Below, piece after piece: positions 14,717 through 52,373 of a stretch of 64,000 nucleotides of DNA (positions are counted from its first letter, which is position 1; every line of letters starts with the position of its first letter). The stretch spans positions 34,326 through 98,325 of the forward strand of contig JBBQFP010000002.1 in the NCBI GenBank assembly GCA_038322045.1, written 5' to 3'. The position numbers and the translations under genes were made by a program. The notes under the pieces are model-generated. The model did not search any database, was not told where the DNA came from, and worked only from the letters and a program-made list of their open reading frames with translations. The DNA is from Actinomycetes bacterium. Its GTDB lineage: Bacteria; Actinomycetota; Actinomycetes; JBBQFP01.

Positions 14717-14738
14717 CATCTGGGCGCGAAGGTTGAGG

Positions 14739-14993: not shown

Positions 14994-15121
14994 GAGCGCC
15001 GCGTCGGCGACGGGGCGGGCACGGACCGGCGAAGGTCCCTGCCCGCCCCGTCGTGAGACCCCCGGGGAGGGGTGGTCGGTGGTCGGCGACCCCGCAGGAT
15101 CGTGCCGGGTGGCGCAGCTCG

Positions 15122-35170: not shown

Positions 35171-35392
35171 GTCTCACACGCTCCTTCGAACCGCGCGTGC
35201 GGACACGTCGCGTCCTTTCCAAGCCGCGCGGTCGGGCCGAGGCTAGCGCGGGTATGCCCCGAATGGGACCGCGTCCCAGAACGAGGGACGCGGGACCGAC
35301 GAGTGCACAATCCGCGTCGCGCTGAGCCGCGGACCGAGGTGGCCACGCTCGTCGTCTGGACCCACCCAGGGATCGGCCGCCGAGGAGCTCCC

Positions 35393-35872: not shown

Positions 35873-36583
35873 TCAGCGAGTCGCGTGCGCGTAGGGGGCC
35901 CCGACGATCCAGCCGCCGATGTCGTCCGGGTCCTCCGTGCTCGTGACGGTCCGGACGGGATCCCCGACGGAGACGAGTCCTGGGCGGATCACCCAGCAGT
36001 TGAGGGCGAGCTCGCCGCCGAACACGTCCCGGATGCGTCGCAGCACGGAAAGGTCCTGGGCGCCTGTATCGGGGTCGATCGTGGTGACGACGCATCGCTG
36101 CCGAACGGAGTGCACCCCGACCAGAACGTCACCGATCTGGAGGGCGCGTCCAGGCAGTTCCGGTTCGAGGTCGGCGTCGACGCCGGACAGCACGATGTTG
36201 GGTCGCAGTCGTCGCACGTCATGGCCGAACCGTGCGACGGCGCCGTCCGTGGCGACGAGGAGGTTGAGGATGTCGAACCGGTGAGGGCTGGGGTCTGCCA
36301 CCAGGCGCGCCCCGTTGCGGCCGTGTTCCGCGATGATCTGCGCGGCTTCCTCCGAGTCCCACCGGTGGCCGTCGACCATCGGGACACCGTCCTGGCCGGT
36401 CCAGGCGGGCACCGTGAGCAGGCCGTTGCGGGTGCGGCCCGTGAGCGGTCCATTCGGGCCGGCGACGTGGACGATGCGGTCCCCCGGAATCCCGTCGAGC
36501 GTCAGCTCGGCGGACTCCAACGGCTCCCCGCGCAGCGACTTGACGGGATAGCGCCAGAGCTGCGAGATGTGCACGTCGTTCAT
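35873..36583 (-). CDS. MOSC domain protein
   Basis: MOSC N-terminal beta-barrel plus MOSC domain (ISQLWRYPVKS, conserved Cys region). Start at MNDVHIS. Confidence 0.7.
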   Translation of the reverse strand: MNDVHISQLWRYPVKSLRGEPLESAELTLDGIPGDRIVHVAGPNGPLTGRTRNGLLTVPAWTGQDGVPMVDGHRWDSEEAAQIIAEHGRNGARLVADPSPHRFDILNLLVATDGAVARFGHDVRRLRPNIVLSGVDADLEPELPGRALQIGDVLVGVHSVRQRCVVTTIDPDTGAQDLSVLRRIRDVFGGELALNCWVIRPGLVSVGDPVRTVTSTEDPDDIGGWIVGAPYAHATR

Positions 36584-36834
36584 CGTGATCTCCCGTTTCC
36601 GCTGTGCCATGACCGCATGCCCTCGAACTGTCGAGCCCCGCCCACCTGCGAGGTCGCAGGGTCGGTCGGTTCGGCATGTCCGGACTCCTCAGAAGCCTCG
36701 ATGAGCCACCGGTATTCCTCCCGGCAAGCCGGACAGCTCAACAGGTGCACTGCCAACCTGCGGTGGGTGCGCCCTCCGGATCTCCGCCGGCGAGCTGTTC
36801 GTTCACCTACTCGTGAAGCAGGGAGAACACCGCG

Positions 36835-37020
36835 TCACATCCTGGAGCCGACGTCGCGGAGCACGGACGCGCATCCGGCCCGAGCAGTCTTCCTCGCGGC
36901 TTTCGTCGAGCGTCGAACAGCAACCAGTCGAGCAGTCAGCTGCTCCCACGTGGCGTCGTCCCAGGTCGCGCGGCGCTCGCGCCAGAAGTGTCGGCCCATC
37001 TTCGTGGAGACCTCGAACAT
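36835..37020 (-). CDS. small hypothetical ORF in a lower-GC spacer
   Basis: 61 aa ORF. This is the only candidate in the about 1 kb region between the MOSC gene and eat. Weak support. Confidence 0.2.
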   Translation of the reverse strand: MFEVSTKMGRHFWRERRATWDDATWEQLTARLVAVRRSTKAARKTARAGCASVLRDVGSRM

Positions 37021-37571
37021 GGCCGAGTCTGAATGATGGTCGGGTTGGGAGTTGCTCGGCCGCCCGTGGGCGTACGGGAACCGCCGGGTCTGCCGGCTTC
37101 TCCGAGGTCCTGGTTGTCAGGCCGGGCGGTGCTGTTCATCAGCGCATCGGGATCGCGACGATCGTGTCCAGAGCGGCGGTGGTCATGGCCACCGCCCAGG
37201 GCCAGTTCGGGGTCAGCGCGAGCCAGGCGGCGTTGGCCCTGCAGGCGACGTGCTCGAGATCGAGGCCGACCACCGCCGGCGCGCCGTCATCGATGCTGTC
37301 GACACCGGCGAGCTTCGACCCCCTGCGCAACGACATGGGCGCCGGCTTGGCCAACCCGTCCGAGGACGGCGGCTGGGACACGACGAGATCAAAACACGAC
37401 GAACCGGACTTCACGATCGACCCGCCGACACGCCAACCATCAGGCCCCCAACCGACCCCGGAGCCGATGACCTATCCAGTCACCTGAACCAGTGAAGGTC
37501 TTAGGTCCCGACTTGGTCGCCCGACTGTTGAACTCCGCTCGACCGAGGTCTAAGTTCCGCAAGCAACGACA

Positions 37572-37584
37572 CCTCACCGTGAGG
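37572..37584 (+). promoter_or_regulatory. perfect 6-bp inverted repeat (CCTCAC-c-GTGAGG) in the eat 5-prime leader, 23 nt upstream of the start
   Basis: Seen directly. Imperfect direct repeats (AGGTCTTAGGTCCCG / AGGTCTAAGTTCCG) at 37495-37560 precede it. Candidate operator or leader hairpin. Confidence 0.3.
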
Positions 37585-37606
37585 TGGCAGCGGCGGAAGG
37601 TCGCCC

Positions 37607-39061
37607 ATGGCCAGAACGACGCACACGACTGGCTCACAGGCTGTCGAGTACGACATCGAGGGCCGCGAGTACTTCGAGAAGCGAGAGCTGCGAGGCGGCG
37701 TCGCTGGCTGGCTGCTCCTCGCGGGGCTTGGGGTGGCCTACGTCATCTCGGGGGACTTCGCCGGGTGGAACTTCGGCTTGGAGCAGGGCGGTTGGGGTGG
37801 CCTGCTCGTGGCGACCATCCTCATGGCGACCATGTACCTCTTCATGGTTTTCGGCCTCGCCGAGCTATCCTCGACGATCTCCACCGCCGGTGGCGGCTAC
37901 GCATTCGCCCGGCGCGCCATGGGCCCCTGGGGCGGTTTCCTCACCGGCACCGCGATCCTCATCGAGTACGCGATCGCGCCGGCCGCCATCGCCAACTTCA
38001 TCGGGGCGTACGTCAACTCGCTGACCAACCGGGAGGTCCCCGGCTGGATCGTCTTCCTGGCGTTCTACGCGCTGTTCGTGGGCCTGCACCTCTACGGCGT
38101 CGGCGAGGCGCTCAAGCTGATGTTCGTCATCACGGCGATCGCTGTCGTGGCGCTGGTGGTCTTCGTGGTCGCGGCCGCCGTCAAGTTCGACCCGTCGAAC
38201 CTGCTGAACATCCCGAAGACCGACGCGGTGGGGGCCAGCTCGTTCCTGCCGTTCGGCGTGATCGGGATCTGGGCGGCGCTCCCTTACGCGATCTGGTTCT
38301 TCCTCGCCGTCGAGGGCGTGCCGATGGCCGCCGAGGAGACCAAGAATCCCGCCAAGGACATGCCCAAGGGAATCATCGTCGCGATGCTGGCTCTGCTGGT
38401 GTTCGCAGCGGCAGTCCTCACGACCGCGCCCGGCGCAGCCGGCTCGGAGTTCCTGCGCACATCCGGCAACCCGCTGGTCGAGGCGCTCGAAGCCCCGAAG
38501 GCGTACGGCGGGCAGAACTTCGTCAGCCAGTTCATCAACCTGGTCGGCCTGCTCGGGCTCATCGCGAGCTTCTTCTCGATCATCTACGGCTACTCCCGGC
38601 AGACCTTCGCGCTCTCCCGCGCCGGGTACCTGCCGAAGATCCTCTCGATCACCGGTCGACGCAAGACCCCGTTCCTCGCCCTCATTGTGCCCGGGATCAT
38701 CGGGTTCGTCATGGCCGTCTTCAACCAGGGCGACCTGCTCATCCTCGTGGCGGTCTTTGGTGCGACGATCTCCTACATCATGATGACGCTGTCGCACATC
38801 GTGCTCCGGAAGAGGGAGCCCGACCTGCCGCGGCCCTACCGCACGCCTGGCGGCGTCGTCACCACCGGCATCGCATGCGTCCTCGCCTGCATCGCGCTCG
38901 TTTCGGGTGCGCTGGTGGACCCGCGTGTCTTCTGGATCACAGCGGCCGTCTACGTGCTGGCGATCGCGTACTTCGCCCTCTACAGCCGTCACCACATCGT
39001 GGGGTCGGCCCCGGAGGAGGAGTTCGCGCTCATCGAGTCGGCGGAGGCCGAGCTCAACTGA
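37607..39061 (+). CDS. eat: ethanolamine permease (APC family)
   Basis: 484 aa, 12-TM APC transporter of the Eat type. GGAAGG RBS. First gene of the eut cluster. Confidence 0.8.
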   Translation: MARTTHTTGSQAVEYDIEGREYFEKRELRGGVAGWLLLAGLGVAYVISGDFAGWNFGLEQGGWGGLLVATILMATMYLFMVFGLAELSSTISTAGGGYAFARRAMGPWGGFLTGTAILIEYAIAPAAIANFIGAYVNSLTNREVPGWIVFLAFYALFVGLHLYGVGEALKLMFVITAIAVVALVVFVVAAAVKFDPSNLLNIPKTDAVGASSFLPFGVIGIWAALPYAIWFFLAVEGVPMAAEETKNPAKDMPKGIIVAMLALLVFAAAVLTTAPGAAGSEFLRTSGNPLVEALEAPKAYGGQNFVSQFINLVGLLGLIASFFSIIYGYSRQTFALSRAGYLPKILSITGRRKTPFLALIVPGIIGFVMAVFNQGDLLILVAVFGATISYIMMTLSHIVLRKREPDLPRPYRTPGGVVTTGIACVLACIALVSGALVDPRVFWITAAVYVLAIAYFALYSRHHIVGSAPEEEFALIESAEAELN

Positions 39062-39091
39062 TCCCCACAACGCCACGACGAAAGGGTCCGC

Positions 39092-39382
39092 ATGCTGATC
39101 GCGAGAGTCCGCGGCTCCGCCGTGTCGACCGTCAAGGAACGCAGCCTGGTGGGGCACAAGTTGCTGCTCGTGCAGGAGGCGACGGAGTGCGACGAGCTGA
39201 TCGGCCGGACGTTCGTCGCCGTCGACGGTGTCGGCGCGGGCACCGGCGAGCTCGTGCTCATCGCCACGGGGAGCGCCGCGCGCCACGGGGAGCGCACGCA
39301 GGACCAACCGGTCGATGCGCTCGTCATCGGCATCCTCGACTCGATGGACGTGGACGGTCAGACCACGTTCCGAAAGAGCTGA
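39092..39382 (+). CDS. eutN: BMC vertex protein (BMC-P, EutN/CcmL family)
   Basis: 96 aa, MLIARV...GSAV..K...G.KLLLV...VAVD.VGAG.GE.VL...GSAAR pattern of the EutN/PduN pentamer family. Confidence 0.85.
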   Translation: MLIARVRGSAVSTVKERSLVGHKLLLVQEATECDELIGRTFVAVDGVGAGTGELVLIATGSAARHGERTQDQPVDALVIGILDSMDVDGQTTFRKS

Positions 39383-39383
39383 C

Positions 39384-40820
39384 GTGCCGGTCTCAGGCCG
39401 CGACGTCCTCAGCGTCGGCATCGACGTGGGCACGACCACCACACAGGTCGTGTTCTCGCGGTTGTCGCTGCACGACGTCGCGCGCCCGGGACAGATACCC
39501 CGCATCCAGGTCGACGAGAAGTCGGTCGTCTACCGCAGCGAGGTCCACCCGACCCCGCTGACCAGTCCCGACGAGGTCGATGCGCCGGCCCTGGCGGCGA
39601 TCGTGCGCGAGGAGTACCGCCGCGCTGGCATCGAGCCGTCCGCCATCGAGACCGGCGCGGTCATCATCACGGGGGAGACCGCGCGCACCCGCAACGCCGA
39701 CGCTATCCTCGCGGAGCTGTCCAAGGAGGCCGGCGACTTCGTCGTCACGGTCGCCGGCCCGAACGCGGAGGCCCAGATCGCCGGGCGAGGCTCGGGCGTC
39801 GCTCGATGGTCAGCCGACCACTACGAGCAGGTCACCACCGTCGACGTCGGCGGCGGGACGTCGAACGCCGCGGTGTTCAAGATGGGCCGCCACCTGGGCT
39901 CGTCGGCGCTGGCAGTCGGCGGGCGCCAGGTCGAGATCGACAGCAGCGGCCGCGTGCTGCGCATCGCCCCACCGGGACGCTCCCTCGTCGAGGCGCTGGG
40001 ACTCGACCTGCGCGAGGGCGACGTCGCGACGCTGTCATCGTTGCGCCGCTTCTGCGACGTCATGGCCGATCTCATCGCCGACCTCGCTACCGGCCAAGAA
40101 GTCCGGATCGGCCGCGGCGTGCAGCTCACGCCACCGCTGCGCGACACCGCCGCGTCGACGTCGCTGTTCCTCACCGGCGGCGTGGGCGCTTGTTACTACG
40201 GGCGCGCGCCGTTCGGCACGGTCGCCGAGGTCGCGGCGTTTGGCGACGTCGGGCCGCTGCTCGCGGAGTCCTTGCGCCACAACGACCGGCTCGTGCGATT
40301 CACGGTGCGCGAGCCGCCGGAGACGCTGCGGGCCACCGTGCTCGGTGCCGCCGGGCAGACCGTGACGCTGTCGGGCTCCACGATCTGGGCCGACCGGCAG
40401 CTGCTGCCGTTGCGTAATCTGCCGGTGCTGCGTCCCTCGATGCCCGGCCGCGGCGGCGGTCCGCCGTTCGCCGAAGCCGTTGCCGAGGCCCGCAGCCGGT
40501 GGGATCTGGACGCCGATGCGCAGGTCGCGATCGTCGTCGACCTGCCCGCCGAGCTCGGCTACGCCGGGCTGACGGCTGTCGCCGGCGACATCGTGACCTA
40601 CCACGGCACGCGCCACGGCAGCTCACCGCTCGTCCTGGTCATGGCCCAGGACTACGCGCAGGTGCTCGGGCAGACCGTCCAGGCGCTGCGCCCGGGTCTG
40701 CCGCTGCTCGTCATCGACCAGGTCGGGCTCGGCGAGGGCGACTTCGTCGACGTGGGTGTGCCGATGCTGGACGGCCGCGCCGTCCCGCTCTCCATCAAGA
40801 CGCTGGTGTTCTATGACTGA
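39384..40820 (+). CDS. eutA: ethanolamine ammonia-lyase reactivase
   Basis: About 478 aa with EutA-like tandem actin-like ATPase motifs (GIDVGTTTTQ, DVGGGTSN). GTG start directly after the eutN stop. Confidence 0.85.
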   Translation: MPVSGRDVLSVGIDVGTTTTQVVFSRLSLHDVARPGQIPRIQVDEKSVVYRSEVHPTPLTSPDEVDAPALAAIVREEYRRAGIEPSAIETGAVIITGETARTRNADAILAELSKEAGDFVVTVAGPNAEAQIAGRGSGVARWSADHYEQVTTVDVGGGTSNAAVFKMGRHLGSSALAVGGRQVEIDSSGRVLRIAPPGRSLVEALGLDLREGDVATLSSLRRFCDVMADLIADLATGQEVRIGRGVQLTPPLRDTAASTSLFLTGGVGACYYGRAPFGTVAEVAAFGDVGPLLAESLRHNDRLVRFTVREPPETLRATVLGAAGQTVTLSGSTIWADRQLLPLRNLPVLRPSMPGRGGGPPFAEAVAEARSRWDLDADAQVAIVVDLPAELGYAGLTAVAGDIVTYHGTRHGSSPLVLVMAQDYAQVLGQTVQALRPGLPLLVIDQVGLGEGDFVDVGVPMLDGRAVPLSIKTLVFYD

Positions 40821-40853
40821 GTCCCACGCCCGAGGCTCGGGAGCTGAGGCCTG

Positions 40854-42218
40854 ATGCTCGCCGCCACGCTGTTCGGTCACCGGTACGAGTTCCGCGACGT
40901 CAAGGACCTCTTAGCGAAGGCCAACGAGGAGAAGTCCGGCGACCAGCTCGCCGGGATCGCCGCCGAGTCCGCCGCCGAACGCATGGCGGCGAAGTGGGTG
41001 CTGGCCGAGGTGACGCTCGAGACGCTGCGCCAGAATCCCGCCGTCCCGTACGAGCAGGACGAGGTCACGCGCGTCATCGACGACGCCGTCAACGAGACCG
41101 TCTACGGCGACATCAGGGGCATGGCCGTCGGCGAGCTGCGCGAGTGGTTGCTCGCCGACACGACGACCGAAGACATGATCAAGCGCACGTCGCTCGGCCT
41201 GACCGCCGAGATGGTGGCCGCGGTCACCAAGCTGATGTCGAACCTCGACCTCATGCTCGGCGCGAGCAAGATCCGCAACGTCAAGCACTGCAACAACACG
41301 ATCGGGCTTCGCGGCACGCTCGGCAGCCGGTTGCAGCCGAACCACCCCACGGACTCGGTTGAGGGCATCCGCGCCGAGATCTACGAGGGGCTCTCCTTCG
41401 GCTCGGGCGACAGCGTCATCGGCATCAACCCCTCCGACGACTCGATAGGCAGCGTCACGCGGCTCCTGGAGATGACGCACGAGGTCATCACGCGCTGGGA
41501 GATCCCGGCGCAGAACTGCGTGCTCGCCCACGTCTCCACGCAGATGGAAGCGCTCAAGAAGGGCGCGCCGGTCGGGTTGGTGTTCCAGTCCCTGGCCGGC
41601 TCGCAGCTGGGCTGCGAGTCGTTCGGGATCAGCGTCGGCATGCTGGACGAGGCGTACGCGCTGGCGAAGCGCTACTGCTGGACGCCGGGCCCGAACTACA
41701 TGTACTTCGAGACCGGCCAGGGCTCCGAGCTGTCCGCCGACGCGCACCACGGGGCCGACCAGCTCGTCATGGAGGCTCGCTGCTACGGGCTGGCGAGGCG
41801 CTACGACCCGTTCCAGGTCAACACGGTCGTCGGGTTCATCGGTCCGGAGTACCTCTACGACGCCACGCAGATCACCCGGGCCGGGCTCGAGGACCACTTC
41901 ATGGGCAAGCTCACCGGCATCTCGATGGGCTGCGACGTCTGCTACACCAACCACGCCCGCTCGACGCAGAACGAGAACGAGAACCTCGCGGTGCTCCTCG
42001 GCGCGGCCGGCGTGAACTTCATCATGGGCGTCCCGATGGGCGACGACGCGATGCTCAGCTACCAGAGCACCAGCTACCACGACGCGCCGAGCCTGCGCCG
42101 ACTGCTGAACCTGCGCCCCCTCCCGGAGTTCGAGCAGTGGATGACGGACCTGGGCCTGATGCGCGACGGCCGGCTGACCGAACGCGCTGGCGACGCCTCG
42201 TTCTTCCTCGGCCGCTGA
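40854..42218 (+). CDS. eutB: ethanolamine ammonia-lyase large subunit
   Basis: 454 aa with strong EutB similarity over its length. Confidence 0.9.
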   Translation: MLAATLFGHRYEFRDVKDLLAKANEEKSGDQLAGIAAESAAERMAAKWVLAEVTLETLRQNPAVPYEQDEVTRVIDDAVNETVYGDIRGMAVGELREWLLADTTTEDMIKRTSLGLTAEMVAAVTKLMSNLDLMLGASKIRNVKHCNNTIGLRGTLGSRLQPNHPTDSVEGIRAEIYEGLSFGSGDSVIGINPSDDSIGSVTRLLEMTHEVITRWEIPAQNCVLAHVSTQMEALKKGAPVGLVFQSLAGSQLGCESFGISVGMLDEAYALAKRYCWTPGPNYMYFETGQGSELSADAHHGADQLVMEARCYGLARRYDPFQVNTVVGFIGPEYLYDATQITRAGLEDHFMGKLTGISMGCDVCYTNHARSTQNENENLAVLLGAAGVNFIMGVPMGDDAMLSYQSTSYHDAPSLRRLLNLRPLPEFEQWMTDLGLMRDGRLTERAGDASFFLGR

Positions 42219-42228
42219 GGAGCGCGAC

Positions 42229-43251
42229 ATGCCTACCGTTGCCGCCGCCGAGATCCGCGCGATCGTCGCCGAGGTGCTCGCCGAGCTCGCGTCGTCCCGC
42301 GCCGCATCATCGGCCAGCGCGGCGCCGTCCTCGCCGGGCTCGCCGCTGCCCGCCGCTCCCCCGCCGGCCGGCTCGCCGCCCGCGACCACCGCTCCGGCAC
42401 CGCCCAAGGCGATGCCGACCGCGGCCGCGGGCGCAGCCGGCTCCCAGCCCTCGGGACCGACCCCGAGCATCGAGGTCGCCGACCCGACCGTCCCGGCCGC
42501 CCGGCACCGCATCGGCGTTAGCGACCCGGTCAACGCCAGCGGCCTGGAGAACCTCGTGGCCTCCACGACGGCGCGTATCGGCGTCGGCCGCGCCGGCTCT
42601 CGGCCGCCCACGGCGACGACGCTGCTCTTCGGGTCCGACCACGCAGTCACCCAGGACGCCATCTTCGGCACGGTCCCCGACGCGCTGCTCGAGCAGTTCG
42701 GCCTGTTCAGCGTGCAGACCCGGGTCAGCACCCGCGACGAGTACCTGCTGCGTCCGGACCTGGGCCGGCTGCTCTCCGACGATGGTCGGGCTCTGGTCGC
42801 GCAGCGCTGCGCGAAGAACCCCGACGTGCAGATCGTGGTGGGCGACGGCCTGTCCGCGGCGGCGATCACGAACAACCTCGACAAGATCTACCCGGTGCTC
42901 GAGCGCGGCTTCACCTCGGCCGGCGTCTCGCTCGGCACCCCGTTCTTCGTGCGGTTCTGCCGGGTGGGCGTGATCAACGACATCAACGATGTGATCGGCG
43001 CCGGCGTGGTCGTGCTGCTCATCGGCGAGCGGCCGGGACTCGGGGTCGCCGACGCGATGAGCGTCTACTCCGGGTGGCGTCCGACCGCCGGTAAGACCGA
43101 CGCGCACCGCGACGTCGTCTGCATGATCACCGAAAACGGAGGGACGAATCCCATGGAGGCTGGCGCGTTCGTCGTCGAGCATGTGCGGACCGTCCTGAAG
43201 GCACAGGGGAGCGGCGTCGACCTGCGGCTGCAGCAGAGCGCGAGCCGGTGA
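42229..43251 (+). CDS. eutC: ethanolamine ammonia-lyase small subunit with N-terminal extension
   Basis: C-terminal about 240 aa is EutC. The N-terminal about 20 aa amphipathic segment plus a about 70 aa Pro/Ala-rich linker is consistent with a BMC encapsulation peptide. Confidence 0.85.
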   Translation: MPTVAAAEIRAIVAEVLAELASSRAASSASAAPSSPGSPLPAAPPPAGSPPATTAPAPPKAMPTAAAGAAGSQPSGPTPSIEVADPTVPAARHRIGVSDPVNASGLENLVASTTARIGVGRAGSRPPTATTLLFGSDHAVTQDAIFGTVPDALLEQFGLFSVQTRVSTRDEYLLRPDLGRLLSDDGRALVAQRCAKNPDVQIVVGDGLSAAAITNNLDKIYPVLERGFTSAGVSLGTPFFVRFCRVGVINDINDVIGAGVVVLLIGERPGLGVADAMSVYSGWRPTAGKTDAHRDVVCMITENGGTNPMEAGAFVVEHVRTVLKAQGSGVDLRLQQSASR

Positions 43252-43907
43252 TGGGCGTCCTCGACCCGATCCGGGCCACCATCCTCGCCACCCGCGTCAT
43301 CTCGTCGGTCGAGCGCGGCCTCGCCCAGAAGTTCGAGCTCCGTGACGACCAGCACAGCCTCGCGCTGGTCACGTGCGACATCGACGACGTCCTGTACACC
43401 TCGCTCGACGAGGCGACCAAGAAGGCCGACGTCGAGGTCGTCTACGCCCGCAGCTTCTACGCCGGCTCGGCGCACGCCTCCGGACCGCTGTCCGGGGAGA
43501 TCATCGGCGTCTTGGCCGCTCCCGACCCAGAGGAGGCGCGGGCCGGGCTGGCCGCCTGCGTCGACTACGCGATGACGAAGGCGTGGTTCGAGGCGGCCGA
43601 CGAGGCAGGCGACCTCGCGTTCTTCAGCCACCCGATCTCGCGTACCGGCAGCTTCTTGTCCAAGGAGGCCGGCGTCCCGCTCGGCACCTCGCTCGGCTAC
43701 GTCATCGCCCCCCCGCTCGAGGCGACGTTCGCCCTCGACGCCGCGCTGAAGGCCGCGGAGGTCGAGCTCAAGGTGTGGTTCGCACCGCCCTCCGAGACCA
43801 ACTTCTCCGGCGGCTACCTCATCGGCGACCAGAGCGCCGTCGTCGCGGCGTGCAGCGCGTTCCGCGACGCCGTCGTCTCCGTCGCCGCCGGGCCGCGGGA
43901 GGTCTGA
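43248..43907 (+). CDS. eutL: BMC-T shell protein (permuted tandem BMC, EutL)
   Basis: 219 aa that aligns along EutL (LALVTCDIDDVLYTS...VVYARSFYAG...SRTGSFLS). Confidence 0.85.
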   Translation: MMGVLDPIRATILATRVISSVERGLAQKFELRDDQHSLALVTCDIDDVLYTSLDEATKKADVEVVYARSFYAGSAHASGPLSGEIIGVLAAPDPEEARAGLAACVDYAMTKAWFEAADEAGDLAFFSHPISRTGSFLSKEAGVPLGTSLGYVIAPPLEATFALDAALKAAEVELKVWFAPPSETNFSGGYLIGDQSAVVAACSAFRDAVVSVAAGPREV

Positions 43908-45433
43908 TGGGCGCCGTTCACGCCGGCAATGAGCTGGACGCCGACCTGCGCTCGGTCCAGGAGGCCCGGAGCCTCGCGCTGGCCTGCCGGGAGGCACAGC
44001 GGCAGTTCGCGACCGCCACCCAGGAGCAGGTCGATCGCGTCTGCGCGGCCATGGCCGACGCGGTGTACCGCGACGCCGAGCGGCTCGGTCGGCTCGCGCA
44101 CGAGGAGACCGGGTACGGCGTCGCAGCCCACAAGCGGCTGAAGATCGAGTTCGCCTCGCGCACGGTGTGGGAGTCGATCCGAGACCTGCGCACCGTCGGG
44201 GTGCTGCGGCGGGACGACGAGCGCCGGGTCGTCGAGATCGGGTGGCCGGTCGGCGTGATCGTCGGCCTGACGCCGTCGACGAATCCCAACTCCACCGCCG
44301 TGTACAAGGTCCTGATCTCGGTCAAGGCCCGCAACGGGATCATCATCGCCCCGCACCCGGCGGCCGTCCGGTGCTCCTACGAGGCCGTGCGGATCATGGC
44401 CGAGGCCGGCGAGCGCGCGGGTATGCCGCGTGGCCTGGTCGCCTGCATGCAGGAGGTCTCCCTGAAGGGCTCGCAGGAGCTTATGCGCCACGAGGCGACC
44501 TCGTTGATCCTCGCGACGGGCGGCACACCGATGGTCCGGGCGGCGCACAGCACGGGCAAGCCCGCTTTCGGCGTCGGCCCGGGCAACGTGCCGGTGTACG
44601 TCGACCGCAGTGCCGACGTCCCGGCCGCCGCCCGCGCGATCGTCAACAGCAAGGCGTTCGACTCCTCGGTGATCTGCGCGACCGAGCAGGCGGTCGTCGT
44701 CGACCGCCCGGTCGAGGCGGCGCTGCGCGCCGAGATGATCGCCAACGGCGCCTACTGGGTGCCGCCCGCGGACAAGCCGGCGCTGGAGCGCGCGCTTTTC
44801 ACGCCCACGCTCGGCATGGACCCGATGGCCGTCGGGCGCACCCCGCAGCAGCTCGCCGCGAAGGCTGGCATATCGGTGCCCCCCGAGGCACGGATCCTGG
44901 TGGTCGACCTCGACCGGGTCGGGCGCTCGGAGCCGCTGTCCGGCGAGAAGCTCACCACGGTGCTCGGCTTCTACGTCGCGGACGGCTGGCGCGCCGGGTG
45001 CGACCGCGCCGTCGAGCTGCTCCACCACGGCGGCGACGGACACTCGATGGTCATCCACGCCACCGACGAGGACGTCATCCTGACCTTTGGCATCGAGAAG
45101 CCGGCGTTCCGAATCCTCGTCAACACGTGGGGCACGCTCGGCGCGATCGGGGCCACGACAGGCGTGATGCCGGCACTCACGCTGGGTCCCGGCGGCATCG
45201 GCGGCGCGGTCGTCGGCGACAACATCACGACCACCCATCTGCTCAACGTCAAGCGGCTCGCGTACCCGCTGCGGGAGCCGCCGCCGATCGCGTACGAGCT
45301 GGCGCCCGACGTCCGGCCCGGCGCGCCCACAACCGCTCGCGACGGCCGCACGGCCGCTGGCGCTATGGTCCTCGACGAGCAGGTCGAGCGGATCGTGGCC
45401 CGCGTCCTCGCGCAGCTCGGCGGCCGGCCGTGA
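43907..45433 (+). CDS. eutE: CoA-acylating acetaldehyde dehydrogenase
   Basis: ALDH-like EutE/PduP family. 508 aa with a about 45 aa C-terminal extension. ATG overlaps the eutL stop by 1 nt. Confidence 0.85.
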
Positions 45434-45579
45434 CCGCGGACACTGCGTCGGCGCCGAAGACCACCCCTGATCGCGCGCCGGGGCCGGACGCCCGCCGTCC
45501 GGACCGCAGCACCCATCCCCCGCCGCACCGGAGCGACCTTGACGACCCGGCACCACCTCCCCCCGGAAGGACCAGCACA

Positions 45580-45891
45580 GTGGCGACTCCCCAGCTCATC
45601 GCGCTCGGCATGATCGAGACCCGCGGCCTCGTCGGCGCCATCGAAGCCGCCGACGCCATGGTCAAGGCGGCGAACGTGACCCTCATCGGCAAGGAGCAGA
45701 TCGGCGGTGGCTACGTCACCGTGATGGTCCGCGGCGACGTCGGTGCCGTGAAGGCCGCCACCGACGCCGGTGCTGCCGCGGCGCAGCGCGTCGGCGACCT
45801 CGTCAGCGTGCACGTCATCCCCCGGCCGCACGGCGACGTCGAGTTCATCCTGCCGACGACCAGGTCGGGCGGCGTTCCCGACACCATCTGA
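45580..45891 (+). CDS. eutM: BMC-H shell protein (EutM/PduA family)
   Basis: [26 protein letters not shown] canonical BMC (Pfam00936) domain. GTG start with a GGAAGGA RBS. Confidence 0.85.
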
Positions 45892-45931
45892 CCCGACCTG
45901 ACCTGCTGGTCGCTGCTGCCGAAGGGTTCCC

Positions 45932-46537
45932 GTGAGGGACGACGATCCCGTCGCGTTCCGCCGTGTCGTCACGGCCGAGGACGTGCTCCGCCTCGTCCGC
46001 GAGGGCGTGGCGGAGCTCGCCGTCGGCCCGGACGACCGGTTCACCTCGCTCGCGCGCGACCTGGTGCGCGAGAAGGGGGTGCGCGTCGTCGTCCGCGACG
46101 CAGCCGGACGCGGCGGTGGTCCCGCACCCGGGCCTGACGTGCCCGCGCTCCCGCCGGTGGCGTCCCGGTCCGGCCCGGCTCGCCGGCTCACCCACGTGGC
46201 CGACGTGCTGCGTCTGACGCTGGACCCCTTCCCGGTCGAGCTCGGCCGGCCGGCGATGGACGTGCGGCTGCGCGACGTCGTGACCGCGCGGGACGGGCTG
46301 CCGATGGCCGCCGGCGTCATGAGCCTGCGGGAGGGCAGCTTTCCCTGGCATCTCGACTACGACGAGGTGGAGTATGTCCTCGAGGGCGAGCTGCACATCA
46401 CGACTCCCGACCAGAAGGTCGTCGGGCGTCCCGGCGATGTCATCGCCGTCCCGAAGGGCTCCTCCATCACCTTCGGGACGCCGTCCTGGGCCAAGTTCCT
46501 CTACGTCACCTACCCCGCGGACTGGAGCGGAGCGTGA
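45932..46537 (+). CDS. eutQ: ethanolamine utilisation cupin protein EutQ
   Basis: C-terminal cupin ([32 protein letters not shown]) and an N-terminal EutQ-type domain (VTAEDV...[24 protein letters not shown]). Confidence 0.75.
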
Positions 46538-47367
46538 AGGACGTCGAGTCCACGATGGCGGCAGCCGCAGCGGTGATGGCCACACCGGACCGGCCCGCCG
46601 AGCGCCCCGCCGCGCTGAAGGTCGGGGTCGACCTCGGCACGGCATACACGGTCGTGGTCGCGCTCGACGCCGACGACCGACCGCTCGCCGGCGCCTACGA
46701 GTTCGCCGACGTGGTGCGCGACGGCGTCGTCACGGACTTCCTCGGCGCGGTCGACCTGGTGCGCCGGCTCAAGCGGCAGGTCGAGGACCGACTCGGGTGC
46801 TCGATCGCCGCGGCGCACGGCGCGTTCCCGCCGGGAGTGCCCGCGGCCGAGGTCCGGGCTGTCCGGCACGTCATCGAGGCGTGCGACATGGACTGCTCGG
46901 GGCTGGTCGACGAGCCGTCCGCGGCCAACGCCGTCCTGCAGCTCACCGACGGGGTCGTCGTCGACGTCGGAGGCGGTACCACCGGGATCGCCGTCGTGCG
47001 GGACGGCATCGTCGTGCACACCGCCGACGAGGCCACCGGCGGTACCCACATGACCCTCGTCATTGCCGGGGCGCTCGGCGTGCCGTTCGAGACGGCCGAG
47101 CGGCACAAGCTCGACCCGGCACAGCAGGTGCGCCTGCTCCCGCTGATCCGTCCGGTGATGGAGAAGGTTGCCGAGATCGCGCGGCGCAACACCGCGGGGT
47201 TCGACGTCCCACACATCACCCTCGTCGGAGGCCCCGCGGCCTTCCCCGGCTTTGCCGAGGCGGTGACGGATGCTCTCGGCGTGCCGACCACCGTCCCGCC
47301 GCATCCGCTGTTCGTGACCCCGCTCGGGATCGCGCGGAGCGCGCCCGTGTACGCCCCCCTGTCCTGA
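46534..47367 (+). CDS. eutJ: EutJ (Hsp70/actin-like chaperone)
   Basis: GVDLGTAYT, DVGGGTTGIAV and LVGGPAAFPG actin-fold ATPase motifs. GTG start overlaps the eutQ stop. Confidence 0.8.
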   Translation: MKDVESTMAAAAAVMATPDRPAERPAALKVGVDLGTAYTVVVALDADDRPLAGAYEFADVVRDGVVTDFLGAVDLVRRLKRQVEDRLGCSIAAAHGAFPPGVPAAEVRAVRHVIEACDMDCSGLVDEPSAANAVLQLTDGVVVDVGGGTTGIAVVRDGIVVHTADEATGGTHMTLVIAGALGVPFETAERHKLDPAQQVRLLPLIRPVMEKVAEIARRNTAGFDVPHITLVGGPAAFPGFAEAVTDALGVPTTVPPHPLFVTPLGIARSAPVYAPLS

Positions 47368-47392
47368 CACCGCTCGATCGAGGAGACCTCCC

Positions 47393-48016
47393 GTGGCCGA
47401 CGACCTGGAGCTGCGCTGCTACAGCTACATCGACCGGATGCAGCCGCAGTACGCGTCCTTCGTGGGCACGGTGACCTCCGGGGACCTGCCGGTGGAGGGC
47501 ATGGCCGCCCTGTACGTGGAGATGGCGCCGGGCAACCACGTGTTCCGGGTCGTCGACGTCGCCGTGAAGGCGACCGACGCGCGGCCGGGCGCGCAGATCG
47601 TCGAGCGGCAGTACGGCATGTTCGAGCTGCACTCGCAGTCGCAGGCCGAGGTGCTGCAGGCGGGCGACGCGGTGCTCGCCGAGCTCGGGCTCCGCGCGAC
47701 CGACCGGGTACGACCCAAGATCGCGTCGCTGCAGGTCATCACGAATGTGAGCCCGTACCAGTCGCAGCTGCTCAACCGGTTCACCCGCGGCATGATGCTC
47801 GTCGCCGGCCAGACCATGCTGGTGGTGGAGTGCACGCCCGCCGCGTACATCAACTTCGCCGCGAACGAGGCCGAGAAGGCCGCGACGGTCAACCTCATGC
47901 ACGTCGCGTCCATCGGCATCTTCGGCCGGCTGTGGATGGCCGGCTCCGAGGCCGACATCGTGACCGCGCGTGACGCCGTGGTCTCAGCGCTGGAGGGCAT
48001 CGATGGCCGGGACTGA
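47393..48016 (+). CDS. tandem BMC-domain shell protein (non-permuted BMC-T, PduT/CcmO-like)
   Basis: Two consecutive segments each align to the canonical BMC-H fold (ALYVEMAPGNHVFRVVDVAVKATDA... and LVVECTPAAYINFAANEAEKAATV...). A Cys is present in the second domain. Confidence 0.65.
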   Translation: MADDLELRCYSYIDRMQPQYASFVGTVTSGDLPVEGMAALYVEMAPGNHVFRVVDVAVKATDARPGAQIVERQYGMFELHSQSQAEVLQAGDAVLAELGLRATDRVRPKIASLQVITNVSPYQSQLLNRFTRGMMLVAGQTMLVVECTPAAYINFAANEAEKAATVNLMHVASIGIFGRLWMAGSEADIVTARDAVVSALEGIDGRD

Positions 48017-48350
48017 CGCGCAGCGGCGCCGCTTCGTCACCCGCGCCCACGTCGAGGACGCGGCCGCCACGGGGCAAGCCCTGCGCCTCGGCCCGCGCGA
48101 CGTGCTCACCGACGAGGCGGGGACCCGCGCCCGCGACCTCGGCGTGGCGATCGAACGGGACGGCGCGCCGGCCGGGGCTCCCGGTCGCCGCCCTACGCAG
48201 GCCCCTGCCGCGTCAGGCGCCGCGACATCGCAGGGCGAGGACGCGCTGCGTGTCGCCGTCCGGGCCGCCGTCGTCGCCGAGCTCGGCGCGGGCACGCCGG
48301 GCATCGATGCCGCGATCGACCGGGTCTTCGCCCGCCGCGCCAGCCGCTAG
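48003..48350 (+). CDS. small protein with an EutQ N-terminal-like domain only
   Basis: RRRFVTRAHVEDAAATGQALRLGPRDVLTDEAGTRARDLGVAIE shares the motif of the EutQ N-domain and is followed by an Ala-rich tail. Overlaps the BMC-T 3-prime end by 14 nt. Confidence 0.4.
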   Translation: MAGTDAQRRRFVTRAHVEDAAATGQALRLGPRDVLTDEAGTRARDLGVAIERDGAPAGAPGRRPTQAPAASGAATSQGEDALRVAVRAAVVAELGAGTPGIDAAIDRVFARRASR

Positions 48351-48611
48351 GACTCGACCAGCCACCGCGCCTGGTACGGCCGCCAGTGCTCGGCCACGCC
48401 GAACAGCTCGAGCAGCGGTCCGAGCGGGTGCTCCCGCAGCACGTGCAAGACCCCGAAGCGGCGTGACCCTCCCCCTGCCGCGCCGGCCGCCGCCGCGTCG
48501 TCGTCGTCGATCGCCCTCCCGATGTCGTCGTGGCAGCGCATGTAAGTGATCCACGCTGTCGTCCCCCGTTTTGGGCCAGGGGTGGGAGACGGACACGGCG
48601 TGCGAGCGCGG

Positions 48612-49347
48612 TCAGACCAGGGATGCGCACTGACCGATCGCGTTGCGGCCGACGACGTTGACGCTGCCGAGGACGAAACCTCCGGACACTCCCGGGGTCA
48701 GTCCCGTGCAGGTGAGGTTCCGCCCGATCGTGTTGCGAACGATGTAGACGCCGGGGCGCCCAGGTGGGGGTCGTTCAACGCGAAGTTGGTCAGTGTCGCG
48801 TTCCTGCCGATCTTGTTGAAGAGTACGCCAGCCACTCGGTTCTCTGCCCGCTGACCGTGAGGTTCCCGCCGACCGTGTTGTTCTTGATCGACCACGGAAT
48901 CGGGCCGCCTCCACCGGTCAGAGTGACGTTCCTCGCGACCGTGATCCCGTTCAGCAGAACGACGAACGCGTTGAGGGCCGAGACGTTTCCGTTGATAGTG
49001 ACGGTGGAGTGCCCGTCCGGCTCGTCGGTGCACTCGTGTCCCGAGTTGCCCGTGTACGAGGGCGGCTGGCAGCCCAGACCGAGGATCGAGCCGGAAGCCA
49101 CGGTGACGTTGTGCCCGACGGTGATCGTCGAGGGCGCGCTTTGCGCGTCGAGGACGGCGCCAGCTCCGACGTTCACGTTCCCGACGACGGTGATCACGGC
49201 ATCGGCCGGCACGGAGCACCCGCCCGTGACCGTGCCACAGCCCAGGGCCAGGTTTCGGGCAGGGCGAGCCGGGCGGCGCTGGCCACGAAGTTGCCCGGCA
49301 GGTGCGCCAGCCCGGCGCTGGCTGGAGCAGTGCCGTGGTGCGTTCAA
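48612..49347 (-). pseudogene. beta-helix repeat protein gene with internal frameshift
   Basis: Periodic ITVxGNVxV / NTVGGNLTV / RNTIGRNLT repeats continue across two reading frames (48790-49347 and 48612-48914). Confidence 0.4.
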
Positions 49348-49349
49348 AG

Positions 49350-49745
49350 ATGCAGCCCACGGGCCGTTTCACCGTTCTCCGGCTCGAGGTCGCCGACCGT
49401 GTGACGCACCTACCCGGACAGCACTACGTCGTGCGGCTGCGCGCCGACGACGGGTACACCGCGTCCCGCTCGTACTCTGTCGCGTCCGCACCCGTCGATC
49501 CCCTGGTGAAGCTCTGCGTCGAGCAGCTCGACGACGGCGAGGTGTCGGGGTTCCTCGCCGACGTCGTCGAGGTCGGCGACACCCTCGAGGTTCGGGGACC
49601 GATCGGCGGCTGGTTCGTCTGGGACGGTGCGACCCCCGCGCTCGCAGTCGGCGGCGGGTCTACGCCGAGGAAATCCTCGACGGCTGTCACGTCGTGGCGC
49701 TCTCCCAAGAAGCGTCGCCCACCAGACGCCCGGCCGTTCGCCTGA
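49350..49745 (+). pseudogene. FNR-like FAD-binding oxidoreductase fragment (truncated before the NAD-binding domain)
   Basis: RSYSVAS FAD-binding motif and ...LAVGGGS, then the frame is lost. Confidence 0.35.
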
Positions 49746-49789
49746 CCGAGGCAGACCTCCTGCCGTTCCTGTTGGAGGGTCAGGCGGTG

Positions 49790-50077
49790 CCCGCTGCCCG
49801 CAACTGTCGTCGGGCTGCGGGACCGACTTCGTGCCGCCGACGCGCTGCTCATCTGCACCCCGAGTACGCAGTCGGTCTCCCCGGCTCCTTCAAGAACCTG
49901 CTCGACTGGACCGTCGGCAGACAGGAGGTCGAGCGTCCCGTCGGGTGGATCAACGAGTCCACCTCCCCCACCAGCGCCCGCCGCGCGCACGAGTCCCTCA
50001 GTGCCGTCCTCGGCTACAGCGGCGCCCACGTCGTCGAGACCACCTGTTCGTCGAGAGATGCTCGACGCCTCGGCTAG
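49790..50077 (+). pseudogene. NAD(P)H-dependent FMN reductase fragment
   Basis: HPEYAVGLPGSFKNLLDW motif typical of the SsuE/ArsH-type FMN reductase core, lacking an N-terminus. Confidence 0.3.
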
Positions 50078-50353
50078 ATGACGGATCTCCGCGTCTGTGC
50101 CGAGGTGGCGGAGGCCCTGGCCGAGCTGGTTCGGGCGGTGGATGCTGCGGAGCGCGAGACCCTGAGGTGACGGATCGGCCGGTGTCGACGACGCCGGTGG
50201 CCAGGGCAGGTGATTCGGGTCACGACCCGGCGACGCGACGAGACGCGGTGCGCCATCGACTTGGGCCGGACCCACCAAGGGGCGACCCCGTGTTGGGTCG
50301 CCCCTCGGCCTACGCGTCGCTCGGGTCGATCGACACGACTTGGTGCGCTGTCG

Positions 50354-51502
50354 TCAGATGGCGACGATGCCCTCCGGGCCGCCGACGGCATCGATCTTGG
50401 GGAGGCCAGTGGTCACGCCCGCAGGAACGAGGCTCCCGTCCCTGTGCGCGGTGAACGCGTCGACCTCACCGGCGAGCGCGCTCAGCACGTACACGAACTG
50501 ACCACCATGCGAGGCGGCCAGGTCGATGGGACCCGACGATGTCGTGGCCGCGACCGGCGCGAGCACGGACGTGGTGCCGTCCTTCGCCACGGTCCACGAG
50601 GTGAGCGTGCCGCTGCCGGCGTTGGTGCCGTACAGGTGCGAACCGACACGGACGTTCCAGCACAGGGCGGCGCCGCCCGACGAGGCCGAGACGCCGAGCG
50701 CCACGAGGGATGAGTCGGCCGCGACGGCGTACGAGGCCGTACGCCCGTCACCGGCCTGGGTCACCTCGAGGTGTCCGCGGCGGTCGAACACGAACGAGAA
50801 TGGGACCGGTCCCTGCGACGCGTTCACGATTTCGTCGCCGAGGCTGCCGTCACGTCCGAGGGGGAAGGTCACGATCGTGTTGTTGGCCTTCGTCGCGACG
50901 ACGAGGGTCCGTCCGTTCGGGGTCACGCCGATCTGGCTCGGTGCTGTCAGGAAGAACGGCACCGTCGCGTTGGACAGGCCGAGGCTGCGCCCCGAGCCGG
51001 GGATCGGCACCAGCCGGTCGCCGCGAAGACGGAAGCCGGAAACGCTGCCGGTGCCACCGGCGTTGAGCACGTAGACCGCGGACCCGTGCGTGGCAACGCT
51101 CGACGGAAACGAGCCGCCCGACGGGACAACCGAGTCGAGCGTCAGACGGTTGCGGTGGATGCCGAGCGCGGAGACCGTGCCGCTGCCGGCGTTGACTGCC
51201 ACCAGGGTCTCGTTGCCGTCGACCAGCGCCAGCGAGCCCTGAGAGGCGAGGGCGTCGACCGGCGCGCCGACCTCCTTGCCGCCGAGACCACCGGTCGTGA
51301 ACTCACCGACCGGCGTCAGCGAGCCGTCGTCAGCGCGCGTGAACGCCTCGATGCTGTTGCCTGCCCCAGCGTTGAGCTGGACGAAGACCGCGCCGTCGCG
51401 GAGGTCGCTCGCGTGGGTCCCGTGTGCCGATGCCGATGTCGCGGGCGCCAGCACGAGCGTGGACGCCACCGCGGCGGTCGCCCACAGTCGTACGTTCCTC
51501 AT
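50354..51502 (-). CDS. secreted 7-bladed beta-propeller (lactonase/3-carboxymuconate cyclase-like)
   Basis: Signal peptide (MRNVRLWATAAVASTLVLAPATSASA) and repetitive Gly/Ser/Thr-rich blade-like repeats. Confidence 0.65.
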   Translation of the reverse strand: MRNVRLWATAAVASTLVLAPATSASAHGTHASDLRDGAVFVQLNAGAGNSIEAFTRADDGSLTPVGEFTTGGLGGKEVGAPVDALASQGSLALVDGNETLVAVNAGSGTVSALGIHRNRLTLDSVVPSGGSFPSSVATHGSAVYVLNAGGTGSVSGFRLRGDRLVPIPGSGRSLGLSNATVPFFLTAPSQIGVTPNGRTLVVATKANNTIVTFPLGRDGSLGDEIVNASQGPVPFSFVFDRRGHLEVTQAGDGRTASYAVAADSSLVALGVSASSGGAALCWNVRVGSHLYGTNAGSGTLTSWTVAKDGTTSVLAPVAATTSSGPIDLAASHGGQFVYVLSALAGEVDAFTAHRDGSLVPAGVTTGLPKIDAVGGPEGIVAI

Positions 51503-51789
51503 GTCGTTCCTCTCGTCAGTGCCGATCACGCGACCGGCCTGACGCCCACCATGTCGGGGGAACCCGAGGATGTCCCTTACGCCAGCATTACGCGCAGGCC
51601 GGACGGACCATCCGTAAGATCCCGATAACCAGATGCAAGACGCCGGACTCAGTGGGCCGCGTCGACCGCGGTGAGGCGCTCACGATGGCCGGCGGGGTCG
51701 TCGAGGGTGATCGTGTCCGTGGGCTTACGTAACTCTCACGGGCTGCTCGGGTCGGCGGTCCCCTGGTGCGAGGCTGCTTCGGGTGGGCA

Positions 51790-52223
51790 CATGAGGCGGC
51801 CCACTCCGGGACGGCCTCGAGGCTCTGCGGATCGCGGCGGCTGCGCTCCCGGACCTCGTGGTTCTCGACGTGACGCTGCCGGGCATCGACGGGCTCAAGG
51901 TGTGTCGTCGGCTGCGTGCCGACCGGCCTGACCTGCCCCTTGCTCTACGCCCCTTCGTCGCCGGCCAGCCTGCCGATGCTGCCACCGGCCGTCGTGGCCT
52001 GGCCAAGCAACTCGCGACCAGCTCCGTGCCGGCGACACCGAGAAGGCGCTGGACGCCTCACCAGCGGCGGGCTCGAGCGCGGCTACGCCTTACCGTGCAC
52101 CAAAGCCAAGGCATGACCTGCGACACCGCACTCCTGCTCGGCAACGACGCGCTCTACCGCGAAGCCGGCTACGTCGGGCTCAGCCGCGGCCACGCCCACA
52201 GGCTGGCCCGCGACCTGCGCTAG
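51790..52223 (+). pseudogene. fragments of a response-regulator receiver and of a RecD/TraA-like helicase C-terminus
   Basis: LVVLDVTLPGIDGLKVCRRLRADRPDLP (OmpR-type receiver piece) and VHQSQGMTCDTALLLGNDALYREAGYVGLSRG (helicase/relaxase C-terminal motif), without intact ORFs. Confidence 0.35.
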
Positions 52224-52373
52224 GGCCGACCTATAGTTAGGCTCATCGCCCGCTCGATGACGTTGGGGTTGCTGGGTCTCGATCTGAGACGTTCTGAGTT
52301 GCTGTCCGACTATCGCAGTTGGGCTGGGCACTCTGACCGTCCCCGGAGGTGGATCCGCTACCGGAGAGGCCTC

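Follow-up and report, generated by a model that had tools for sequence, protein, structure and literature searches.

Bacterial genomes are usually biased towards deletion, and the decay of pseudogene clusters is often driven by insertion sequences. EUT3 loci are defined by the phylogeny of their aldehyde dehydrogenase. Microcompartment (BMC) loci have been described as modules that are prone to horizontal transfer (Sutter et al. 2021, PMC8217296); that study deals with locus transfer in a general way and does not go into scars of insertion or debris at the flanks. The locus analysed here is one documented EUT3-like module located between two genes that are neighbours in another genome; the DNA flanking it on either side is eroded, and a repeat brackets it. 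It fits the accepted view of BMC loci travelling as cassettes, and does not reveal the mechanism of transfer.

Within the window, i.e. the whole stretch of 64,000 nucleotides that was analysed, the interval 48350-52260 downstream of the eut genes had been characterized in a preliminary description as a 4-kb graveyard of gene fragments. Most of these fragments are real, but they do not form one block: an intact lactonase-family gene, which occupies 29% of the interval, separates patch A (48350-50170) from patch B (about 51.8-52.2 kb). Altogether six gene remnants flank this gene (Table 1). The interval probably represents ordinary decay in a variable region of an actinobacterial chromosome rather than a ruined mobile element. 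No working protein is expected from any of the six remnants. For annotation it is relevant that an automatic gene caller would output several short spurious ORFs in the interval, and could overlook that the lactonase-family gene is its sole working gene.

Table 1. Position, strand and basis of assignment of the features in and around the eut module.
Feature	Position	Strand	Basis
Intact MOSC-domain gene, left anchor of the variable segment	35873-36583	minus	Pfam MOSC and MOSC_N
Spacer of ~1 kb, no recognisable gene	36584-37606		Pfam, Rfam, GC
53-nt imperfect direct repeat, copy B	37188-37238		BLAST self-match
Ethanolamine-utilisation (eut) microcompartment module	37607-48350	plus	Pfam; shell proteins read from translations
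Amylosucrase (GH13) remnant	48350-48556	minus	blastn, BLASTP, weak Pfam match
Secreted beta-helix pseudogene	48612-49234	minus	Nucleotide alignment to intact L093 gene
53-nt imperfect direct repeat, copy A	49234-49284		BLAST self-match
Short (~209-aa) FNR-type FAD-binding oxidoreductase pseudogene	49302-49786	plus	Pfam and tblastn
FMN reductase pseudogene	49785-50170	plus	Pfam FMN_red
Intact secreted lactonase-family 7-bladed beta-propeller gene, 382 aa	50354-51502	minus	Pfam Lactonase
Conserved upstream region of the lactonase gene	51503-51631	minus	blastn
OmpR-family response regulator remnant	51810-51944	plus	Response_reg; comparison with L100
SF1 (UvrD/RecD/TraA-type) helicase C-terminal-motif-like scrap, 34 aa	52089-52190	plus	Weak profile matches

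Gene remnants and the intact lactonase-family gene

Patch A contains four mutually unrelated genes, coding for an amylosucrase, a secreted beta-helix protein, a short FNR-type oxidoreductase and an FMN reductase, each of which is cut at one or both ends. Since the ends of the FNR and FMN-reductase genes abut directly and the remaining junctions are 3-55 nt apart, successive deletions are indicated. Each junction may reflect a single deletion that took two gene ends together with all DNA between them, and deletion bias would have shrunk a formerly longer series of accessory genes, all of them dispensable, to ~2 kb. The debris could be cargo that arrived with the eut module or, alternatively, older neighbours that eroded. 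Similarity to a protein family that is of partial length or split between frames, the mark of a pseudogene, was found for the beta-helix, FNR, FMN_red, amylosucrase and response regulator sequences.

The amylosucrase remnant is an additional piece that the preliminary description did not list. It consists of two colinear scraps with an internal deletion of ~150 aa between them, and its stop codon overlaps that of the last eut gene. In BLASTP it aligns to residues 359-417 and 570-599 of 646; blastn yielded 80.6% identity over 72 nt (E 1e-10) with the 646-aa amylosucrase gene of a Dermatophilaceae locus (L026), and the Pfam match is weak (Amylosucrase_C-like, E 0.079). The beta-helix pseudogene corresponds, with 87% nucleotide identity, to an intact gene (2961-3662 of L093) from position 78 of that gene through to its stop codon, and lacks the first 77 nt including the start codon and the signal peptide. 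One nucleotide each is deleted near 48829 and near 48756, so that the remainder lies in three frames; the gene is indeed broken, as had been proposed, but in three frames instead of two and with its 5' end lost. The conceptual protein matches intact proteins of 233-272 aa with 82% identity and 97% coverage (E 6e-101); the members of the family comprise 225-272 aa and have a signal peptide. Mismatch rates at the three codon positions are nearly flat in this remnant (0.115/0.077/0.139), whereas those of the lactonase-family gene are dominated by third positions (0.115/0.057/0.321). It follows that selection on the beta-helix remnant was relaxed.

The homologues of the FNR-type pseudogene comprise 205-210 aa (identity up to 85%, E 1e-47). 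Its N-terminus is intact; further on, 34 aa are deleted internally and the frame shifts at 49661, and ~36 aa are missing from the C-terminal end. By means of tblastn, residues 1-87 of a 199-aa homologue (L094) were mapped to 49401-49661 and residues 122-163 to 49661-49786 in another frame; residues 88-121 are absent. The FAD domain reported previously was confirmed (FAD_binding_6, E 8e-10), but the NAD part is not entirely missing, as residues 122-163 survive in the other frame. The first part of the gene still looks constrained (codon-position mismatches 0.143/0.072/0.364), which suggests that it was inactivated later or that most of the divergence preceded inactivation. The adjoining FMN reductase pseudogene joins the truncated FNR gene without a gap and begins at profile position 54. 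FMN_red positions 54-83 and 79-142 are read from two different frames, in agreement with the previously reported core motif without a start. The reading frame shifts near 49860-49874 and is interrupted by an in-frame TAG at 50075-50077. The NCBIfam FMN reductase matches are weak.

The lactonase-family gene (Pfam E 3e-13) had been overlooked in the preliminary description. It has 1263 homologues, the best being 91% identical over the full length; identities of 77-91% were recorded for homologues. Homology of the upstream region extends to 51631 in four loci (L082-L084, L095) and elsewhere ends between 51553 and 51619. The homologues occur in at least eight different genomic contexts.

In patch B, the previously noted OmpR-type receiver fragment is present. 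It matches the Response_reg profile (E 1e-8) at positions 29-73 alone, and retains no more than receiver residues ~33-76. Compared to an intact 249-aa regulator (L100), it shows 76% amino acid and 79% nucleotide identity. In L100 the intact regulator gene divergently adjoins a lactonase homologue at equal spacing (344 vs 347 nt), and the fragment is therefore a native neighbour of the lactonase gene and not debris of an element; the regulator gene has decayed in place. The previously noted palindrome TTACGTAA has a single occurrence in the window, at 51725. In contrast, the lower GC claimed for 51540-51860 did not hold: the value is 69.2% compared to a window mean of 70.9%, which corresponds to the 34th percentile of 321-nt windows. 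The helicase-like scrap was matched by UvrD_C_2 (E 0.0024, 18.2 bits vs a cut-off of 27.4) and, as best named NCBIfam model, by TraA_Ti (E 1.6e-4, 20.2 bits vs a cut-off of 590); the latter match spans 34 residues and comprises the shared helicase motif only. Neither a PDB nor a plasmid match was obtained, and the scrap stays below the curated thresholds for an SF1 helicase or a MobF-type relaxase. Of the RecD/TraA-like helicase or relaxase fragment proposed earlier, a weak likeness to a helicase motif is left, both scores being far under their cut-offs. From its sequence the scrap is weakly identifiable; it appears indistinguishable from any SF1 helicase and its identity is uncertain.

The eut module and its flanks

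The eut module codes for eat permease, EutA, EutB, EutC, an EutL-like protein, aldehyde dehydrogenase, BMC-H, EutQ, an EutJ-like protein, a conserved 207-aa protein and a 126-aa protein. EutA, EutB, EutC, EutQ and Aldedh were identified by Pfam, and the EutL-like protein and BMC-H from the translations. The 207-aa protein, which has no Pfam match, is a candidate tandem-domain (BMC-T) shell protein. All ten proteins that were scanned with Pfam are of full length. The module is collinear with the fetched actinobacterial loci (about 75-77% nucleotide identity). Homology to these loci has sharp edges, starting at 37606-37667 or about 39090 and ending by 48338; no flanking genes are common to them and the window, and 31 downstream contexts were counted among 37 loci. 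The GC content of the module is 71.0% vs 70.9% for the window. In tetranucleotide usage, the distance between the module and the remainder of the window is 0.129, which is within the range of control segments (0.095-0.176). Composition is uniform across all boundaries and not unlike that of the host, and the compositional argument for an island falls under the refuting condition that the preliminary description itself had set.

On the left, the MOSC protein is 66% identical to the product of the gene that directly follows a lactonase homologue in L085/L086. The adjacent spacer has a GC content of 67.1% (8th percentile of equal-sized windows), no Rfam match, and a possible zf-HC2 scrap (E 0.0096) as its sole Pfam match. 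An orphan ORF (37142-37471, minus strand) found one single match among 1.84 billion representative proteins, a 91-aa protein with 99% identity that presumably stems from the same or a near-identical organism. In L085/L086 the lactonase and MOSC genes are 134 nt apart; here they have the same order and orientation and are separated by 13.8 kb with the eut module in between. L085 and L086 are the same sequence, and the adjacency is that of one distant relative (80% and 66% amino acid identity).

A 53-nt imperfect direct repeat, which had not been noticed before, brackets the eut module over 12 kb. Its copies start at 37188 and 49234. The copies are 85% identical (BLAST E 9e-8 at whole-window scale) and represent the strongest self-match of the window apart from paralogous gene pairs. 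Copy A starts where the beta-helix homology ends and finishes 17 nt before the start of the FNR gene. The repeat is absent from all fetched loci, and tRNA genes were not found in the window. Judged by homology edges, contexts, lactonase-MOSC adjacency and repeat, the interpretation of the eut module as an island appears partly supported. Of the island originally postulated, the cassette-like edges, the varied contexts and the bracketing repeat speak in its favour, but composition does not, and the implied edges are at about 36.6 and 50.35 kb, or at 37.19 and 49.28 kb if the repeat is taken as the boundary, instead of 36.6-52.3 kb. The EUT3-like module would be a self-contained cassette, most likely acquired between the lactonase and MOSC genes, and the repeat may be a scar of this acquisition.

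Weighing of alternative explanations

Besides decay next to an acquired cassette, it is conceivable, albeit unlikely, that the eut module and the adjoining genes came to this position by vertical descent, that the debris represents old neighbours which decayed in place, and that relatives like L085 lost the whole segment. Uniform GC and tetranucleotide composition, the clearly native response regulator remnant and the lack of mobility genes among the ORFs scanned are in line with this, as is L026, in which the eut module is followed at a distance of 2 kb by an equally oriented amylosucrase gene. However, L026 is the only locus with such a gene nearby, and the diversity of downstream contexts, the lack of common flanking genes and the bracketing repeat argue against it. 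Conversely, the preferred reading, decay beside an acquired module, has to face the uniform composition, the fluid gene order of a group in which lactonase homologues occupy so many contexts, and the hint from L026 that the right-hand neighbourhood was inherited and not newly joined; moreover, insertion here and loss in the L085 lineage are indistinguishable from the genomes compared, all of which lie outside the species and genus. A further variant, in which the 12,046-bp segment between the repeats (37188-49284) is a recombinase-less integrative island of eut module, amylosucrase and beta-helix remnants with the repeat as attachment-site scar, is improbable; if true, it would offer a concrete handle on the movement of whole microcompartment loci between actinobacterial chromosomes.

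The preliminary description had suggested an old integrative/conjugative element, with the helicase scrap as relaxase remnant and, in our extension, the 53-nt repeat as attachment sites. We regard this as very improbable. The TraA match and the repeat are what recommends it, but that match is confined to a motif common to helicases, the scrap is situated beyond the segment that the repeat delimits, the receiver fragment is native, and the relatives so far carry the remnant genes only as scattered chromosomal genes. Pfam detected no integrase, transposase, relaxase or transfer gene in 50 ORFs or frames from most of the window. Even less credible are artefacts, i.e. genes that are intact in the organism and seem broken owing to frameshift errors or chimeric joins during metagenome assembly. 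The closest sequences are all metagenome-derived, and of the two single-nucleotide losses in the beta-helix gene, one falls in a run of C. Most lesions, however, are deletions of tens to hundreds of nucleotides and not of single bases, the beta-helix remnant bears the trace of relaxed selection, and the ten neighbouring eut proteins that were scanned are full length. In addition, 49889-51880 is reproduced at 100% identity by an independent Logan contig (L001); the matching part takes in most of the FMN reductase pseudogene with its stop codon in frame, and also the first portion of the receiver scrap. This second assembly confirms that part only, leaving 48350-49888 outside its coverage, and the window itself probably stems from a metagenome assembly. 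A junction pattern search of JGI metagenomes gave no match.

Comparison with known systems

What the locus shares with actinomycete integrative/conjugative elements is an imperfect direct repeat at its flanks and a scrap that resembles a helicase. In contrast to these elements, it has no integrase, relaxase domain, FtsK/TraB-type DNA translocase or tRNA target, its helicase scrap is located outside the repeat-bounded segment, and its receiver fragment is native. The locus resembles the pseudogene clusters that deletional bias leaves in plasticity regions of bacterial chromosomes: unrelated genes are truncated, frameshifted or interrupted by stop codons, their breakpoints abut or nearly do so, and they lie beside an accessory module between conserved genes. 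Except that insertion sequences are missing here, nothing is unusual. The module itself resembles EUT3-type loci, with which it has in common EutA, EutB, EutC, aldehyde dehydrogenase, EutQ, the EutJ-like and EutL-like proteins, BMC-H and the conserved 207-aa candidate tandem-domain protein, as well as the organization as a compact cassette that is found in many genomic contexts and several phyla. By gene content, it is EUT3-like.

Gene remnants around an intact lactonase-family gene

The window has a GC content of about 71% and an actinobacterial character. At such a high GC content mechanical ORF lists are crowded with spurious frames, and coding calls were therefore based on third-codon-position GC, profile searches, and homologues. 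The interval 48350-52260, which follows the ethanolamine-utilisation (eut) microcompartment module, had been described as a graveyard of gene fragments. The fragments are very probably real, but the interval is not uniform debris; it surrounds an intact gene for a lactonase-family protein. The interval is best read as a variable region, next to the cassette-like eut module, that has undergone ordinary deletional decay.

Features of the eut module's left end and of the downstream interval (window positions)
Feature	Position	Strand	Basis or description
Amino-acid permease	37607-39061		Pfam
Amylosucrase remnant	48350-48556	minus	nucleotide similarity (blastn) to gene of locus L026
Secreted beta-helix pseudogene	49234 down to 48612	minus	homology to secreted proteins of 225-272 aa
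FNR-type oxidoreductase pseudogene	49302-49786	plus	homology; intact relatives ~209 aa
FMN reductase pseudogene	49785-50170	plus	Pfam profile from position 54 onward
Lactonase-family gene	50354-51502	minus	intact, 382 aa, signal peptide; Pfam Lactonase E 3e-13
OmpR-family receiver fragment	51810-51944		76% aa identity to L100 regulator
Helicase-like scrap	52089-52190		only UvrD_C_2 (E 0.0024) and TraA_Ti (E 1.6e-4)

The amylosucrase remnant shares 80.6% of its nucleotides over 72 nt (E 1e-10) with the gene of a 646-residue amylosucrase in the related locus L026. It is colinear with residues 359-417 and 570-599 of this protein; thus, the first ~358 residues, ~150 internal residues, and the end are gone. 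Its stop codon overlaps with that of the last eut gene. L026 is the only locus with an amylosucrase gene near the eut module, and the gene was rejected as a usual companion of the module. A three-frame reconstruction of the beta-helix pseudogene matches the intact secreted proteins with up to 82% identity at 97% coverage (E 6e-101). Aligned to the gene in L093 (87% nucleotide identity), it contains two 1-nt deletions and begins only at gene position 78, so that the start codon and the signal peptide are lost. Its mismatch rates at the three codon positions are nearly even (0.115/0.077/0.139), which argues that the gene drifted without selection; in the lactonase-family gene (0.115/0.057/0.321) third positions dominate.

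In the FNR pseudogene, similarity to the L094 protein runs through residues 1-87 as far as 49661, from where residues 122-163 resume in another frame; the final ~36 residues are absent. The FMN reductase pseudogene begins at the very base where FNR homology stops, changes frame near 49860-49874, and contains an in-frame TAG at 50075. The FMN_red genes located near lactonase homologues in L082 and L089 have no detectable similarity to this remnant and were rejected as its orthologues. The order FNR-FMN_red was not found in L094, where an Oxidored_molyb gene precedes FNR. Since the cut FNR and FMN reductase ends abut directly and the remaining junctions between 48350 and 50170 are 3-55 nt apart, we read these junctions as serial deletions. 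Each deletion would have taken the ends of two genes and all that lay between them.

The lactonase-family gene has 1263 homologues, the best of which is 91% identical over the full length. In relatives, nucleotide homology reaches from 50-130 nt upstream of the gene to its stop codon, and different genes lie next to it; judged from these alignments, the gene appears to behave like a single-gene unit. It was observed (50354-51631) in at least eight genomic contexts with 77-91% amino acid identity. In one relative (L087 and L088) it is 87% identical at the amino acid level, and in the region beyond it (L087 1813-2856, L088 1904-2947) only very short ORFs of 33-105 residues were called, none of which has a Pfam match. 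This stretch may be a similar decayed region.

On the other side of the gene, the receiver fragment corresponds to an intact 249-residue OmpR-family regulator in L100, which is divergent to the lactonase homologue at a matching spacing (344 versus 347 nt). The fragment is therefore what is left of a native neighbour after decay in place. The helicase-like scrap has no match in the PDB or among plasmids; behind it lies an intact GntR-family gene.

Authenticity of the lesions

A Logan contig (SRR19962014) is 100% identical over 49889-51880, which comprises the in-frame stop, the lactonase-family gene, and the start of the receiver fragment; this second assembly covers that stretch but not 48350-49888. 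A junction-spanning DNA pattern had no match in JGI metagenomes. Base-calling errors cannot account for most of the lesions, which are deletions of tens to hundreds of nt. SRR19962014 contains both this contig (L001), which is identical to the window, and L086, in which a lactonase and a MOSC gene are adjacent. The two loci come from one sequencing run, and the organisms therefore share a habitat.

Origin of the eut segment

The relaxase- and receiver-like debris had been taken as a sign of an old integrative/conjugative element. This is not supported: Pfam searches of 50 ORFs and frames from most of the window yielded chemotaxis, fatty-acid, sugar-acid, transporter, and regulator genes and no integrase, transposase, relaxase, or transfer gene; the window contains no tRNA; the receiver is a native neighbour; and the helicase match is weak. 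The supposed low-GC patch, which sits between the receiver fragment and the lactonase-family gene, has 69.2% GC (34th percentile) and is not one. The eut module, with 71.0% GC, is close to the window's 70.9%, and its tetranucleotide distance does not stand out either. Composition marks no boundary in the window. Elsewhere, a chemotaxis cluster (CheY-like, CheB, CheW, CheA) occupies 8065-15324, and two KDPG/KHG aldolase paralogues (20143-20841 and 34517-35173; 69% nucleotide identity over 226 nt) enclose a cluster for sugar-acid catabolism and ABC transport.

A 53-nt imperfect direct repeat (37188-37238 and 49234-49284; 85% identity) is the strongest self-match of the window apart from those between paralogous genes. 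The right copy starts at the exact base where beta-helix homology ends; it has no similarity to the molybdopterin oxidoreductase gene preceding FNR in L094, and a derivation from the 3' end of that gene was rejected. The left copy lies within a minus-strand ORF of 110 residues (37142-37471; third-position GC 0.88). Among 1.84 billion representative proteins, this ORF has a single match, a protein of 91 residues with 99% identity that presumably belongs to the same organism or to one nearly identical with it. Because further homologues are missing and the similarity is confined to the 53 nt, the ORF is not a remnant shared with the beta-helix 5' end. An RNA element such as a riboswitch, in the spacer upstream of the eut module or at the repeat, was likewise rejected: Rfam matches were absent across the window at gathering score, and in the spacer also at E<=1. 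At 36700-36790 (minus strand), the spacer matches zf-HC2 profile positions 18-35 (E 0.0096), possibly a scrap of an anti-sigma-factor zinc finger, which suggests that debris is present on the left side of the eut module, too.

In L085 and L086, 134 nt separate a lactonase homologue (80% amino acid identity) from the MOSC gene behind it, whose identity to the one at window positions 35873-36583 is 66%. In the window, both genes keep this order and orientation, yet are 13.8 kb apart. An insertion of the eut segment is favoured because of this split, because the right edge of the module cuts into the amylosucrase remnant, and because the 53-nt repeat brackets the segment. The adjacency, however, is known from one distant organism only, genes around the lactonase-family gene change order easily, and in L026 the eut module has an amylosucrase gene on its downstream side; the segment may therefore have been inherited and lost elsewhere. 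It may plausibly be an island, as proposed in the preliminary description, though with other edges than those suggested there.

The eut module and its relatives

Among 80 related loci compared by blastn, actinobacterial ones are collinear with the eut module at ~75-77% identity. Homology starts at 37606-37667, or at ~39090 in loci without the permease, and ends by 48338, just before the stop codon of the last gene (48348-48350). The genes that flank the module in the window are all absent from these loci, and the 37 loci with enough downstream sequence display 31 different downstream contexts. The final gene (47970-48350; 126 residues) overlaps the preceding one by 47 nt, is kept in 46 fetched loci, and has no Pfam or NCBIfam match.

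A 207-residue protein (47393-48016) near the end of the module is found in 313 loci from Actinomycetota, Chloroflexota, and a few other phyla with 69-90% identity; the closest relative (90%) is from a Dermatophilaceae genome. It has no Pfam match at E<=0.01; judged by eye, it could be a diverged shell protein with tandem BMC domains. Pfam identified EutA, EutB, EutC, an aldehyde dehydrogenase, EutQ, and an EutJ-like ATPase; EutL-like and BMC-H proteins were seen in translations. In this gene set and in the conserved, tandem-domain-like 207-residue protein, the module appears to resemble the EUT3 type (Sutter et al. 2021, PMC8217296).
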